DNA from: a virus
Taxonomy: Duplodnaviria > Heunggongvirae > Uroviricota > Caudoviricetes
IMG/VR virus record: IMGVR_UViG_2675903324_000013
DNA: 17,173 bases
Strand: one strand, 5' to 3'
How positions within the stretch are numbered: position 1 is the stretch's first letter; each line of letters begins with the position of its first letter. Both the position numbers and the translations under genes were made by a program. The notes beneath the pieces are model-generated. The model saw only the letters and a program-made list of their open reading frames with translations, searched no databases and was not told where the DNA came from. Positions 1-15,712 of this stretch are shown here, piece by piece.

Positions 1-1230
1 ATGAGCAGAGCACTTAACAAACTGAGCGATACACAGCTGAGGAAAATCAACGGCACACCCGCCCAAAAAACAGCCTTTCTTAATGACGGTGGAAACCTGA
101 GCGTCAGGCATTCAACCAGTGGCCTTTTAACCTGGTATTTCACTTACAGGGCCGGAACGGGAAGGGGGGCACCACCGGAACGCATTAAGCTGGGAAATTA
201 TCCTGATCTGAGCCTGAAATCAGCCAGGGAAAAAGCCGCCCAGTGTCGCGCATGGCTGGCAGAGGGGAAAAATCCACGTCATGAAATGAATTACACCGTA
301 CAGGAAGCGTTAAAGCCGGTAACGGTTGGCGATGCGCTCACCTACTGGCTTGAGTCGTACGCAAAGGAAAACCGTGTGGATTATGACCCACTGAAAAAGC
401 GGCTAAATAATCACGTAATACAGCACATTGGCCCTATGCCGCTGGATAAATGCGAGCTACGGCACTGGCTGGCCTGTTTTGATCGGGTGGCAAAGAAAGC
501 CCCTGTTTCCGCCGGGTTCCTGCTACAGACATGCAAGCAGGCGCTTAAGTTCTGCAGGAAGCGGCGCTATGCAATCAGCAACGTTCTTGATGATATGAGT
601 GTGGCGGACGTTGGGAAAAAACCGGATATAAGTGAGCGTGTCTTAAGTAACAAAGAACTTGGCGAATTATTGCAGGCACTGGACAAAAAAATATTTTCCC
701 CTTACTACGTCGCACTAATCCGCCTCCTGATTGTTTTCGGATGCCGGACAGTAGAACTGAGGTTATCGGAGATCGGCGAGTGGGATTTTACCGAAATGCT
801 CTGGACCGTTCCGAAGGAGCACAGCAAAACGAAGGTAGCCATATTCCGGCCCATACCGGAAGCGATACTGCCGTTCGTCACGCAGCTGGTGGAGCAGAAC
901 AGGCACACGGGCTTATTGCTGGGGGAAGTGAAACAGGAAACCAGCGTATCGCAGTACGGCAGATTAGCGCACAGGAGGCTAAAACACCCTCAATGGTCAT
1001 TGCATGACATCCGGCGCACCTTTACAACCATGCTGAACGATTTAGGCGTTGATCCTCACGTCGTGGAGCAGCTTACAGGCCACCAGATGCCAGGAATGCA
1101 ACGCGTGTACAACCATTCCCGCTATATTGATGCGAAACGCAATGCGCTTGATATGTGGGTGGAGCGGTTGGAGATACTGGCGGGAACACATGAAAACGTA
1201 ACCACGCTACCAGTAACCAGAATAAAATAA
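1..1230 (+). CDS. int: Tyrosine recombinase / integrase, P4 (CP4-57) type
   Basis: 409-aa ORF starting at window base 1. C-terminal catalytic region carries the tyrosine-recombinase signature residues (…LHDIRRTFTT…, …GHQ…, …VYNHSRY…). Followed by an AlpA gene as in P4-like islands. Confidence 0.9.
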   Translation: MSRALNKLSDTQLRKINGTPAQKTAFLNDGGNLSVRHSTSGLLTWYFTYRAGTGRGAPPERIKLGNYPDLSLKSAREKAAQCRAWLAEGKNPRHEMNYTVQEALKPVTVGDALTYWLESYAKENRVDYDPLKKRLNNHVIQHIGPMPLDKCELRHWLACFDRVAKKAPVSAGFLLQTCKQALKFCRKRRYAISNVLDDMSVADVGKKPDISERVLSNKELGELLQALDKKIFSPYYVALIRLLIVFGCRTVELRLSEIGEWDFTEMLWTVPKEHSKTKVAIFRPIPEAILPFVTQLVEQNRHTGLLLGEVKQETSVSQYGRLAHRRLKHPQWSLHDIRRTFTTMLNDLGVDPHVVEQLTGHQMPGMQRVYNHSRYIDAKRNALDMWVERLEILAGTHENVTTLPVTRIK

Positions 1231-1263: not shown

Positions 1264-1279
1264 GATAAGTGCACAGATA

Positions 1280-1319
1280 CAACGTGAAACAATGTGCAAC
1301 AACGTGACACAATCACGAA
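1280..1319. repeat. Four tandem 10-bp phased repeats (caacgtgaaa / caatgtgcaa / caacgtgaca / caatcacgaa)
   Basis: Directly visible with exact 10-bp periodicity between int and alpA; candidate binding array for a recombination-directionality factor or regulator. Confidence 0.5.
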
Positions 1320-1419
1320 CAAGAGGCCAAAAAGAATACAGATTTGTAAGTTGCTGATTTTTAATGCTCAGCTGGTTTTTTATACATTAGTGAATTACGC
1401 GTTAAAGCGTGCGAAAAAA

Positions 1420-1448: not shown

Positions 1449-1604
1449 TTAACATGAATTTAAATGATTTTATCCTGATTATTCCTCTTTCTGTAAACCA
1501 TGCGACACCAACATTTGCCAACTCTGAATCATCCTGACACAATCAGACACATCCCAACGCAATAGAACACGAAATAACTCTTTAAGAAACGAAAGGGGGC
1601 AATA

Positions 1605-1793
1605 GTGTTAAGCACTGATCGGTTTATACGTGAAAAAGAATGCGAAAAGCTAACAGGCCTTAGCCGCTCATGCCGCTACCGCCTGGAAAAGGCCGGACAA
1701 TTCCCATCACGTCGTAAACTTGGTGGGCGTTCTGTTGGCTGGTCTTTATCTGAGGTTTTGGCCTGGAAGGATAGCTGCAAGGCAGTTCACTAA
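1605..1793 (+). CDS. alpA: AlpA-family phage regulatory protein (small HTH activator / excisionase-like)
   Basis: GTG start 5 nt after a GGGGG Shine-Dalgarno; 62 aa with the AlpA pattern …LTGLSRS.RYRL…GQFP…KLGGRSVGW…EV..W. Confidence 0.85.
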   Translation: MLSTDRFIREKECEKLTGLSRSCRYRLEKAGQFPSRRKLGGRSVGWSLSEVLAWKDSCKAVH

Positions 1794-7332: not shown

Positions 7333-7569
7333 ATGGTACATGACCGCATAGCGGAGGAACTCGAGGCAAAAGGCTTTTACCGGAGGGCGTCGGCGCGATG
7401 GGGTGAAGTCATGCAACTGGTGGAGACAGACAAGGAACGGCATCAGGTTACGATGCGACGGCTGGAATGTTCCAGGAAGGCACAGAGGCCACCGGAGAAC
7501 TACGCAGACCTGAGAAATGCAGTAAATCGCACTTATGCAGACATGGGGCTGAGCAAATTAGCTGAGTAG
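7333..7569 (+). CDS. Small regulator-like protein (78 aa), possibly PerC-family
   Basis: GAGGGGG RBS; basic helical protein with the motif DRIAEELEAKGFYRRASARWGEVM, which I recall as PerC-like. Assignment is from memory, not searched. Confidence 0.4.
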   Translation: MVHDRIAEELEAKGFYRRASARWGEVMQLVETDKERHQVTMRRLECSRKAQRPPENYADLRNAVNRTYADMGLSKLAE

Positions 7570-7591: not shown

Positions 7592-7615
7592 AGCCGGAGC
7601 AATCCGGCTTTTTTT
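7592..7615 (+). terminator. Strong intrinsic terminator T1 (stem AGCCGGA / TCCGGCT, GCAA tetraloop, U7)
   Basis: Read directly; follows the stop at 7569. Confidence 0.7.
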
Positions 7616-7710: not shown

Positions 7711-7935
7711 ATGCCGACGAAATTTGATGAGATATTAAAACAGCGTGATAAATACCATGCTGACAACATGGAGACGATGAACATCACTGATTACCGAGCA
7801 TTCCTGGAAACGGGGGCGCTGATTGAAAAGGATCATCATGGTTTTGTTCGTTGCGCGCTATCCGGTGAAATGCTGGCGGTAAATCCTGAACAGACAGATG
7901 CATTGATAGAATTTCTGAAAGGGATCAGGGACTGA
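7711..7935 (+). CDS. Hypothetical protein (74 aa) in a terminator-bracketed cassette (moron-like)
   Basis: ATG 7711 with GAGGA RBS; possible own promoter (-10 TACTAT at 7672-7677); flanked by two copies of the same terminator. Confidence 0.5.
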   Translation: MPTKFDEILKQRDKYHADNMETMNITDYRAFLETGALIEKDHHGFVRCALSGEMLAVNPEQTDALIEFLKGIRD

Positions 7936-7945
7936 GCACCCATAC

Positions 7946-7967
7946 AGCCGGAGCAATCCGGCTTTTT
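7946..7967 (+). terminator. Intrinsic terminator T2, 23 bp identical to T1 (cagccggagcaatccggcttttt)
   Basis: Read directly. Confidence 0.7.
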
Positions 7968-7986
7968 GTTATTTTTTGTAAATTAT

Positions 7987-8016
7987 TTGTTCGTGGTTGT
8001 TCCACGTTGTTCACTG
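7987..8016. repeat. Three tandem 10-bp repeats TTGTTCgtgg / TTGTTCcacg / TTGTTCactg overlapping a candidate late promoter
   Basis: 10-bp phasing; the third unit is a possible -35 (TTGTTC), with TATTTT at 8029-8034 after a 16-bp spacer; the 15-mer ttgttccacgttgtt recurs at 15574-15588. Confidence 0.45.
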
Positions 8017-8071
8017 AGCGGATCGGCATATTTTACCCGAACTGAATCATGATTATTCTCGCCCGTGGTGC

Positions 8072-8226
8072 CAGGACGCTGGGGCCACTTTCCCGCCTGT
8101 TAATGTGCTCGCCAATATTCATTACCAGGCGGGAAAACGATCGGTGCGATTGCTGATTCCCTTATGAAAAACGGTTGAGTTTTTGCCGCGTCCTGGAGTT
8201 CCTTACTTAACCCCAGGACTTTTTTT
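8072..8226 (+). promoter_or_regulatory. Structured leader of the head-gene operon with alternative pairings and a sequestered Shine-Dalgarno
   Basis: 8188-8196 (GCGTCCTGG) can pair either with 8072-8080 (CCAGGACGC, 9 bp) or with 8213-8219 (CCAGGAC, 7 bp). The latter hairpin is followed by T7 and contains the AGGA SD of the capsid gene (8215-8218). A further 9-bp stem with 26-nt loop lies at 8092-8135. Confidence 0.4.
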
Positions 8227-9384
8227 ATGCCGAGAATAATCGAATTACGCCAGCAGAAAACCGCCATTAAAAATCAGATGCGCGACATGCTGGAGAACGC
8301 GGAAAAAGAAAACCGCAGTCTTAACGATGCTGAGGGCGCAAAATTTGACGAATTACGCGCTAAAGCTGAATCCCTCGATAAAGACATTTCCCGCCTTGAA
8401 GCCATTGCAGACGAAGAGCGCAGCAAGCCAGGTAAAAGCAGCCAGACCACTGACCCCGCAGAACTACGCAGCTACATTCTGACAGGTGAAACCCGCGCAT
8501 TAAGTACAGGCGTTCCCGCTGATGGTGGTTATACCGTTATCCCCGAACTGAACACCGAAATCATGCGAATGCTGGCGGATGAGTCCACCATGCGCCGCAT
8601 CTGTACCGTGAAAAAAATCAGCAGCAACGAGTTTAAGCAGCTTGTTTCCGCTGGCGGTGCGACCGTTAACCACGGTGAAGAGGGTAAGGCACGCGAACAG
8701 ACCAGCACCCCGCAGATTAACGAGGTGAGCATTAAGCTGTATCCGGTCTATGCGTACCCGCGCACCACACAGGAAATCGTGGATTTTTCCGATGTGGACA
8801 TCCTTTCATGGCTGACGGGTGAGATTGGCGACACCTTCACGGAAACCGAAGAAAGCGATCTGGTTGTGGGCGACGGTGACAAAAAAGCAAAAGGTTTTTT
8901 ATCCGTACCCCGTGCAGAGAAGAACGACAAAGAGCGTGATTTTGGTACGTTGCAGGTAATTAAACCTTCCGAATCTCTGGCGTGGACATCTGCGGACCCG
9001 CTGATCGACCTGAAATTTGCATTACGTAAAAAATACCGCAAAAACGCGGTCTGGGTGGTTAACTCCACGACGGCGGCAAAACTCCAGAAGGTGAAGAACG
9101 CGAACGGTGATTACATCTGGCGTGACCGTTTACAGGCGGGTGATCCTGATACGTTGCTGGGCCTTCCGGTCGAATATCTGGAGTTTATGCCTGATAACGT
9201 TATTGCCCTGGGTGACTTCAAACGCGGTTACTACATTGTTGATCACGAAACAGGTGTTCGCACCAGACCGGACAACCTCACAGAGCCGGGCTTCATCAAA
9301 ATTTTCACGCAGAAATATTTAGGCGGTGGCGTGGTGGATTCGAACGCGATCAAGATTCTGGAACTGCCACAGGACGACGATTAA
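8227..9384 (+). CDS. Major capsid protein, HK97 fold, with N-terminal coiled-coil delta domain
   Basis: 385 aa; coiled-coil N-terminus (IELRQQKTAIKNQMRDMLENAEKE…) and a C-terminal region paralleling HK97 gp5 (…VWVVNSTTAAKL…GDYIW…LLGLPVEYLEFMP…GDFKRGYYIVDHETG…). Confidence 0.9.
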   Translation: MPRIIELRQQKTAIKNQMRDMLENAEKENRSLNDAEGAKFDELRAKAESLDKDISRLEAIADEERSKPGKSSQTTDPAELRSYILTGETRALSTGVPADGGYTVIPELNTEIMRMLADESTMRRICTVKKISSNEFKQLVSAGGATVNHGEEGKAREQTSTPQINEVSIKLYPVYAYPRTTQEIVDFSDVDILSWLTGEIGDTFTETEESDLVVGDGDKKAKGFLSVPRAEKNDKERDFGTLQVIKPSESLAWTSADPLIDLKFALRKKYRKNAVWVVNSTTAAKLQKVKNANGDYIWRDRLQAGDPDTLLGLPVEYLEFMPDNVIALGDFKRGYYIVDHETGVRTRPDNLTEPGFIKIFTQKYLGGGVVDSNAIKILELPQDDD

Positions 9385-15272: not shown

Positions 15273-15712
15273 AGCGAAAAATTCTGATTAAGGTCACTGG
15301 CTGAATGGTCATAATGACCACGCAGACCATCGAGGCAACCATAGCGATCATCGTTACGGTTGGAGCTTTTCCGCCATTGGTGGAAAAGGTGCACATCTGG
15401 ATCATCATTACGGTGATCAAGGGTATGTAAAACCCACCAGCCTGATTAAAGGTTAACCGGAAAAAAAATCCGGTAGCCCCGTTATGGGGATCCCCATATC
15501 GACATTAACGCCCCTCATGAATTGGTGCGCTTCCCCCTGGAAAGATTACCCGCCTGTATATTTCTTGTGTCTATTTGTTCCACGTTGTTTCATACAGTGC
15601 ACCGAACGGTGTAGTTAATGGTGTAGTCAATTTGCGATTTTTGGCACTTTTTCAATGATAATTGTTTAATTAAATCAATGGCTTGACCTGGTATAGTGAT
15701 AAAAGGACATAT

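Follow-up and report, generated by a model that had tools for sequence, protein, structure and literature searches.

The capsid-forming phage-inducible chromosomal island (cf-PICI) contained in the 17,173-nt window (the whole stretch of DNA analysed here, IMG/VR record IMGVR_UViG_2675903324_000013) carries, upstream of its HK97-type major capsid gene, a structured 5' untranslated RNA. This RNA is a member of a conserved leader RNA family of cf-PICI packaging operons, previously undescribed. The 17-kb element comes from Escherichia coli, is of the EcCIEDL933 type and lies between roxA and phoQ. Taken as a whole, the leader is best explained as a cis-acting RNA gate of the late capsid/packaging operon, an explanation that we favour with some reserve, and it is probably an on/off control for the head genes of the satellite. 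In the searchable cf-PICI literature, no promoter, leader, terminator or regulator is described for the packaging operon.

The region upstream of the capsid gene is a genuine leader, as proposed in the initial annotation of the sequence, and counts 205 nt, because a transcription start site (TSS) has been mapped at the equivalent of A8022. Cappable-seq of the uninduced strain EDL933 gives one gTSS for the capsid gene at NZ_CP008957.1:1687918(+), detected in 7 of 8 growth conditions (PMC10469882 Table S5). The capsid coding sequence of EDL933 starts at 1688124, and its leader counts 206 nt (U8 instead of U7). The start is the A of CACTGACAGG[A]TCGG and corresponds in the window to A8022, 10 nt past the third of three TTGTTC direct repeats. 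These repeats had been said to overlap the promoter, and they indeed span positions -35 to -10, the first one (R1) covering -35 to -30. The promoter is poor as a sigma-70 promoter and a consensus scan leaves it uncalled. Upstream, an TTGTAAAT box in an A/T-rich stretch is conserved in almost all related loci, and it is separated from hairpin H1 of the leader by 87-89 bp in all but one of 72 loci, the exception having 99 bp. This fixed spacing, together with a TATAT -10-like box ending 7 nt before H1 in sister elements, was the basis of a model where H1 begins with the first transcribed base and TATAT/ATTATT serves as the -10 box. That model was rejected for the window class, the Cappable-seq start being located 43 nt upstream.

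The leader contains several perfect complementarities (Table 1). The sequence GCGTCCTGG (8188-8196, segment C) is the perfect complement of CCAGGACGC (8071-8079, segment A), as seen by direct reading and by repeat search (inverted repeat I4, 9 nt, 100%). The annotation had placed the upstream partner at 8072-8080; the pairing stands and its position is corrected to 8071-8079. Segment A lies within H1, the loop GACG of this hairpin being formed by residues 8075-8078. As also predicted, the last 7 nt of segment C pair downstream with CCAGGAC (8213-8219, segment D) to form the outer stem of hairpin H3, and the two pairings are mutually exclusive, I4 and I3 sharing residues 8190-8196. H3 comprises 7 outer bp, GTCCTGG/CCAGGAC (5 GC pairs), and 3 inner pairs, with a 1x1 internal loop and an 8-nt apical loop. 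The Shine-Dalgarno sequence (SD) AGGA (8215-8218) is buried in its 3' arm, and seven U residues separate the hairpin from the capsid ATG, exactly as initially described. The motif CCAGGAC is present twice as a direct repeat (D1). The small hairpin H2b is weak, and two of its wobble pairs become Watson-Crick pairs in the variants 2012C-4227 and L029 (L numbers designate collected loci).

Two other segments are complementary to the beginning of the capsid gene. The inverted repeat I2 forms a long-range helix that closes the whole leader, with a pair probability of 0.82-1.0 and one mismatch in EDL933-type variants. The inverted repeat I5 competes with I2 and is absent from the minimum free energy (MFE) structure. 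For the pairing of the 5' segment with the start codon, significance is reached in the window class and some other classes, but the low complexity of the U-run and A-run confounds it; it was rejected as a universal feature. In the MFE structure, the AUGAAAAA run at 8164-8171 pairs with U7 and the AU of the start codon (8220-8228), a fourth cover of the initiation region. The 303-nt region holds four perfect inverted repeats of 8 nt or more, whereas 500 dinucleotide shuffles contain 0.62 on average (P = 0.006); three of them reach 9 nt or more, and none of the 500 shuffles has as many. A z-score of -5.4 is obtained for the fold of 8020-8240.

Table 1. Features of the island and of the capsid leader (window coordinates).
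Feature	Position	Strand	Remarks
Integrase gene	1-1230		
alpA	1605-1793		PF05930
Genes after alpA: RepA-like helicase, then SSB			
PerC-family protein gene	7333-7569		follows the SSB gene
phrog_1957 protein gene	7711-7935		74 aa; function-unknown PHROG family
Intrinsic terminator of the upstream (early) operon	7946-7968	+	terminator scan; hairpin AGCCGGAGCAATCCGGCT (7946-7963) then T-run
TTGTAAAT box	7976-7983	+	-46 to -39 of the TSS
TTGTTC direct repeats	7987, 7997, 8007 (array 7987-8012)	+	10-bp phase; cover -35 to -10
Core promoter	7987-7992 (-35), 8010-8015 (-10)		TTGTTC, 17-bp spacer, TTCACT
TSS	8022	+	transferred from EDL933 Cappable-seq
Leader RNA of the capsid/packaging operon	8022-8226	+	205 nt, from TSS to capsid ATG
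5'-terminal segment UCGGCAUA	8023-8030	+	complements UAUGCCGA (8226-8233) including the start codon; I5, 8 nt, 100%
Segment GAUUAUUCUCG	8051-8061	+	complements capsid codons 2-5 (8231-8241); I2, 11 nt, 100%
Hairpin H1	8065-8088	+	GUGGU G CCAG [GACG] CUGG G GCCAC; -15.6 kcal/mol
Hairpin H2	8089-8136	+	inverted repeat I1; position and shape kept, sequence variable
Hairpin H2b	8139-8158	+	in the MFE structure; specific to the window class
Switch segment C, GCGUCCUGG	8188-8196	+	pairs with A (8071-8079) or D (8213-8219)
Hairpin H3, terminator-like and masking the ribosome-binding site	8190-8219	+	inverted repeat I3, 8190-8200/8209-8219
U7 tract between H3 and ATG	8220-8226	+	U8 in EDL933
HK97-type major capsid gene	8227-9384	+	first of the packaging operon; Pfam PF05065, E=1.6e-61
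Packaging genes 3' of capsid: protease, portal, connectors, HNH, TerS, TerL			

In the predicted fold of the finished RNA (8022-8262; MFE -83.0 kcal/mol), H1, H2, H2b, H3 and the I2 helix are all present. Both the SD and codons 2-5 are predicted to be fully paired (unpaired probability 0.0), H3 forms with a pair probability of approximately 1.0, and U7 is expected to remain in part single-stranded (0.34-0.98 unpaired). The translation initiation region (TIR, -15 to +13) has a mean unpaired probability of 0.23, versus 0.53 with shuffled upstream sequence, and 0 of 40 shuffles were as low. Of 13 class representatives, 8 show a significant excess of TIR pairing over that obtained with shuffled upstream sequence. 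The pairing of SD and start codon in the predicted ensemble exceeds expectation, as in leaders that sequester the ribosome-binding site (RBS).

The alternative fold, where segment C pairs with segment A, comes within 0.3-1.6 kcal/mol of the MFE in the nascent RNA ending at 8200-8212, when segment C has emerged and the 3' arm of H3 is still absent. At the same nascent stage in sister classes, this fold lies above the MFE by 0.0 (L068), 0-1.3 (L030) or 3.3-4.5 kcal/mol (L084 and L003), and it equals the MFE at one prefix length at least in L030 and L068. Once the 3' arm of H3 is available, the alternative loses in these classes by 3-9 kcal/mol. Since the alternative fold competes only in the nascent RNA, before the emergence of the H3 3' arm, the modelled energetics are the signature of a kinetically decided switch.

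The conservation of the leader was analysed with sequences from five GTDB genomes, three other E. coli cf-PICIs and 160 IMG/VR loci. The latter were obtained with two capsid queries (the best 80 for each, partly overlapping), about 600-1000 cf-PICI leaders being present in IMG/VR and GenBank. The capsids of the collected loci are 64-100% identical to that of the window. Most enterobacterial elements share one architecture, consisting of the TTGTAAAT box, three 10-bp-phased repeats, a 43-nt segment, H1, H2, a C-rich linker and H3, and the 3' arm of H3 is found just before the ATG in most of them. The sequence of the phased repeats varies by element (TTGTTC; TCGTAC/GTTTAC/GATTAC; others). In complete E. 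coli genomes, the segment 7900-8300 is matched at 93-100% identity in about 360 of 5,426 genomes; the matches are chromosomal in every case and each precedes a capsid gene. An origin of the leader in true phages was rejected, only cf-PICI-like records being matched in the phage database.

Covariation was measured in an alignment (A2) of 37 non-redundant leaders, with controls where the partner was slid by 1-3 columns. RNAalifold recovers H1 and the base of H2. The pairs of H1 and H2 are formed in 93% of cells, versus 33-51% in the slid controls. For H1 alone, 99.4% of cells are paired and four pairs show double compensatory changes, and the same changes are observed for 7 of the 8 basal pairs of H2. 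H1 is near-invariant in sequence among elements with wholly different H2 (majority form GUGGCACUCAGACGUGAGCCGCCAC), and its loop GACG is invariant in the alignment and replaced by GGCG in two further loci.

The competing complementarity between the apex of H1 and the 5' side of H3 is kept in 37 of 37 leaders, with 85.9% of cells paired versus 29-41% in the slid controls; the exclusive pairings of the initial annotation are thus retained in homologous islands. The core of this helix (loop GACG with CGUC) is invariant and the flanks of segment C co-vary with H1. The pair 15/134 is UA in 30 leaders, CG in five and GC in two, and is never unpaired; the pair 10/139 is AU in 26 and GC in five. The competing strands are CCAGGACGC with GCGUCCUGG in the window, AGACGUGA(GCCGC) with (GCGCUGGUU)UCACGUCU in the majority class and GACGGGA with UCCCGUC in the L068/L090 class. 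The complementarity reaches into the 5' arm of H1 in the window and into its 3' arm in other classes. The ten GGAG-type H1 hairpins recovered with the second capsid query all have a CCCGUC tail, and a locus with a 93%-identical capsid combines a UGAG-type H1 with CACGUC. Two independent GACG-to-GGCG variants of the loop hold a G.U pair with the U of the tail. A scan with a degenerate pattern for new variants of the tail gave mostly random matches and no new lineage. In the 40 window-class leaders from IMG/VR (E. coli/Shigella), the segments A, C and D and the U7-8 tract are invariant or nearly so.

The U-tract raises the question of termination. The predicted energy of H3 is -12.7 kcal/mol, versus -12.0 kcal/mol for the two canonical and identical terminators at 7592-7609 and 7946-7963. 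H3 is a G+C-rich hairpin placed directly before the U-tract, on the sense strand of a transcribed region, as in intrinsic terminators; a simple consensus terminator scan leaves it uncalled because its stem has a 1x1 internal loop. The tract is U7 or U8 in 40 of 40 window-class leaders. The sister leaders end in ...GGAAACCACUCCAUG or ...GAAAACCUUCAUG with no U-run (as RNA, the leader ends of other classes are ACUCCAUG or CUUCAUG). As the U-tract is confined to one class, the conserved function of H3 is RBS masking and not termination, and the terminator function, if real, has been added in the E. coli/Shigella lineage. The attenuation logic initially attributed to the leader therefore holds in part: the exclusive pairings are conserved, but the U-tract belongs to a single class and the alternative pairing is negligible at equilibrium. 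For the E. coli class, attenuation of transcription at the U7 hairpin can reasonably, if tentatively, be proposed; it is not the conserved function.

In most sister classes outside E. coli, a terminator-like hairpin and a T-run are found between the third repeat and the leader (e.g. L003 2795-2830). As the inferred start is placed in its loop, this hairpin would stop only upstream read-through and spare the transcripts of the late promoter. In the window class, the corresponding terminator sits upstream of the TTGTAAAT box.

A mechanism can be proposed from these elements. Transcription would start at about A8022 from a weak promoter filled from -35 to -10 by the three TTGTTC repeats, which are probably AlpA sites. 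The finished leader is predicted to fold into H1, H2 and H3, the latter burying the SD, and the helix 8051-61/8231-41 or 8023-30/8226-33 would occlude the start codon together with the beginning of the coding sequence, and translation would thus be off by default. In the E. coli class, H3 and U7 should, in addition, cause a fraction of the transcripts to end precisely at the ATG. The unpaired loop GACG of H1, complementary to CGUC of segment C, may serve as a toehold. During RNA synthesis, segment C would invade H1 to form an alternative helix of 9-11 bp (8071-79 with 8188-96); the 5' arm of H3 would be withheld and neither the terminator nor the RBS-masking hairpin would form. The output would be set by the kinetic competition of the two folds, possibly biased by a further factor. 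The more specific proposal, that the Enterobacterales cf-PICIs share an H1-H2-H3 leader family working as a toehold kinetic switch that sets the capsid level, and that the gain of the U-tract made it an attenuator in E. coli, is offered tentatively and with less assurance than the gate itself.

Several observations weigh against this interpretation. The TSS at A8022 is carried over from a 98%-identical strain and was mapped in uninduced cells only. At equilibrium, the probability of the alternative helix is about 0 and this fold is 10.6-12.4 kcal/mol worse than the closed one. Its covariation corresponds to only two or three independent events or lineages, with none within the window class (40 IMG/VR leaders, elements invariant), and the duplex energy of H1 with the tail only marginally beats that of shuffled tails (38-82 of 1000 shuffles). 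No sister class has the U-tract; the terminator thus lacks the conservation expected of an attenuator, and termination cannot be the ancestral role. No sensing device was found in the leader: it has neither a conserved leader peptide nor a recognised site for a protein, tRNA or ligand. Rfam 15 gave 0 hits in the window at gathering thresholds, and only sub-threshold chance hits, none of them relevant, at E up to 10 in the window and L003. In the upstream open reading frame (ORF) 8050-8157, the position of the stop differs between classes and frameshifting indels are present in L029; leader-peptide attenuation through this ORF was rejected, as it has no SD and its ATG is absent in several classes. 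CsrA sites at the two copies of CCAGGAC were likewise rejected, the GGA motif being not conserved in H1 of other classes. Finally, tail-less EcCIEDL933 and KpCIDSM30104 capsids are reported to be made even without helper-phage induction (2025 preprint, 10.1101/2025.02.11.637232), so the gate is leaky or constitutively opened in some cells. Since such capsids are reported and the TSS is active in uninduced cells, a helper cue, one of the inputs suggested at the outset, is unlikely to be obligatory.

The absence of the U-tract in sister classes, where RBS masking is maintained, is what would be expected if the leader were purely translational or protective. H1 would then stabilise the 5' end, H3 and the long-range helices would tune the access of ribosomes, U7 would be a spacer between SD and ATG or a standby site for S1, and the complementarity of H1 and segment C would guide folding and not termination. 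The partly single-stranded state predicted for U7, the functional SD-ATG spacing of 8 nt and the reported formation of capsids without helper induction agree with this explanation. We nevertheless find it rather unlikely: a GC-rich hairpin of -12.7 kcal/mol with 7-8 U directly behind it corresponds to the textbook intrinsic terminator, similar in strength to the two upstream ones, and U7-8 is invariant in 40 leaders.

A TSS active in uninduced cells about 205 nt before late genes, then a hairpin and U7, also recalls the PR'/tR' arrangement of lambda. The basal late promoter would make a short terminated RNA, possibly a trans-acting small RNA (sRNA) like StxS, and the operon would be read only by a terminator-resistant RNA polymerase, modified by a protein or by H1-H2 acting like the put RNA of HK022. 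The two adjacent 5' hairpins are conserved in position and H1 is almost invariant across elements with capsids only 65-75% identical, but this explanation is improbable for several reasons. The sister classes have no terminator to overcome at the position of H3, and covariation ties H1 to segment C and not merely to itself. No antiterminator of the Q or N family is detected by Pfam among 20 ORFs of the island (several small ORFs have no family at all), and no Hfq-bound sRNA is reported in this island in the lists of Hfq-bound sRNAs of enterohaemorrhagic E. coli. A last explanation places the control at the DNA level, the apex of H1 and segment C being inverted copies of one protein site that co-vary with the specificity of the protein. 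Both copies do change together in three classes, and CCAGGAC occurs twice as a direct repeat. The sites are however inside the mapped transcript, a longer or shorter H2 changes the distance between the copies, and the arms of H1 and the variable H2 show compensatory changes of RNA type including G.U pairs. The extension of the complementarity to the 5' arm of H1 in the window and to the 3' arm in others fits base pairing and not a fixed operator, and we regard DNA operators as very improbable.

The phased repeats of the capsid promoter are found elsewhere in the island. Near-identical TTGTKY arrays in 10-bp phase are located 3' of int (window 1275-1322, minus strand, five copies), over the promoter of alpA, at the place of the alpA TSSs of EDL933 (1535-1575, minus strand), and at 15565-15590 (plus strand, three copies). 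Such arrays lie immediately left of both copies of the att core (L001 1340-1368; window 15565-15590). At least three phased repeats are therefore common to the capsid promoter, the alpA promoter and the att arms, as for regulators of the Cox/Vis/AlpA type. TTAC-type repeats at the capsid promoter go with TTAC-type arrays in the int-alpA region of the same element. The TGTTC-type repeats are paired with AlpA proteins 51-100% identical to that of the window, and the other types with AlpA at most 53% identical; the repeat type follows the AlpA allele better than Int, PerC or phrog_1957. AlpA is known to activate PICIs of Gram-negative bacteria as well as its own promoter (PMC6092414). From this known role and from the association between repeat type and AlpA allele, we infer that AlpA binds the TTGTTC repeats, the arm-binding domain of the integrase being a less likely alternative. 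PerC was rejected as the binder, its gene being missing from many loci with identical TTGTTC repeats, as was phrog_1957, whose identity does not follow the repeat type. The att core is a 21-bp direct repeat, CGGTGTAGTTAATGGTGTAGT (L001 1377-1397 and window 15607-15627), and an imperfect similarity left of both copies points to the relic of a former integration or to an extended att site. In the sister cf-PICI L067, the int-alpA intergenic region (1870-2110) contains three 10-bp tandem arrays, CATTCAACAG x7, GACACGTAAT x4 and TGTTCATnnn x5.

The gene for the 74-aa phrog_1957 protein is directly 5' of the leader, and homologues are found 5' of the capsid gene in many sister elements including those of Gilliamella, often adjacent to the leader. 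The 18-nt terminator hairpin AGCCGGAGCAATCCGGCT is present twice (7592-7609 and 7946-7963) and brackets this gene, whose expression would need read-through of the terminator at 7592-7609 or an own promoter (none was seen). The protein has no Pfam or NCBIfam match, and a PDB sequence search gave no significant match; its single-sequence AlphaFold2 model (pLDDT 60) is too poor to use. Three E. coli cf-PICIs distinct from that of the window have, in place of the PerC gene and two genes 5' of the capsid leader, a gene for an RNA-binding protein with a ProQ/FinO domain (L014 2691-3221, likewise in L015 and L016); in these elements the predicted H3 is weak (-4.5 kcal/mol). An internal TSS is also reported in EDL933 at NZ_CP008957.1 1692589, where it is assigned to the large subunit of the terminase and detected in 2 of 8 conditions (PMC10469882). 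Its position corresponds approximately to 12,690 of the window, within terS.

The cf-PICIs have been recognised only recently, and their way of life, making their own capsids without a helper and then borrowing tails, depends on the expression of the packaging operon. The present analysis defines three elements of this operon: a promoter whose TSS has been mapped by experiment, a candidate operator for AlpA, found likewise at the att sites and the promoter of alpA, and a conserved structured leader that contains a putative switch. If the switch is real, it would be the control point for capsid dosage in elements carried by about 8% of complete E. coli genomes, O157:H7 among them, and a new RNA family for Rfam. 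A toehold switch on a basally active late promoter, if true, could explain the helper-independent tail-less capsids that have been reported.

Excisionase-regulators of the P2 Cox, P4 Vis and AlpA type bind arrays of direct repeats. The island resembles these systems by its 3-5 hexamer repeats in 10-bp phase at the satellite late promoter, at the promoter of the regulator and near the att cores. It differs in that the candidate sites cover -35 to -10 and not an upstream activator position, and the arm-binding domain of the integrase could also bind them. As in classical attenuators (trp, pyrBI, bgl/sac RAT, PyrR, TRAP; 1:2/2:3/3:4 hairpins), a terminator-like hairpin is located in the 5' leader before the first structural gene and an upstream segment pairs with its 5' arm, H1 holding this segment in the role of an anti-antiterminator. 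Contrary to these attenuators, the leader has no conserved leader peptide, known protein or ligand motif or Rfam match, the 3' arm of the terminator contains the SD, the U-tract is present in one class only and the equilibrium strongly favours the terminator.

The late control of lambdoid phages (PR', 6S RNA/StxS, tR' and Q; PMC7547250) shares with the island an uninduced TSS about 200 nt before the head genes, followed by a hairpin and a U-run. In the island, however, no Q-type protein is detected, the candidate terminator extends up to the start codon and hides the RBS, and the promoter is overlapped by direct repeats common to the att sites and the alpA promoter. Among RBS-sequestering leaders (5'-3' pairing of hok mRNA, Mu mom/Com, lambda cIII), the window leader is distinguished by the lack of an identified antisense RNA or activator protein and by a hairpin that doubles as a candidate terminator. 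As in these leaders, its SD and start codon are predicted to be locked by local and long-distance helices, and its alternative fold is competitive only co-transcriptionally.

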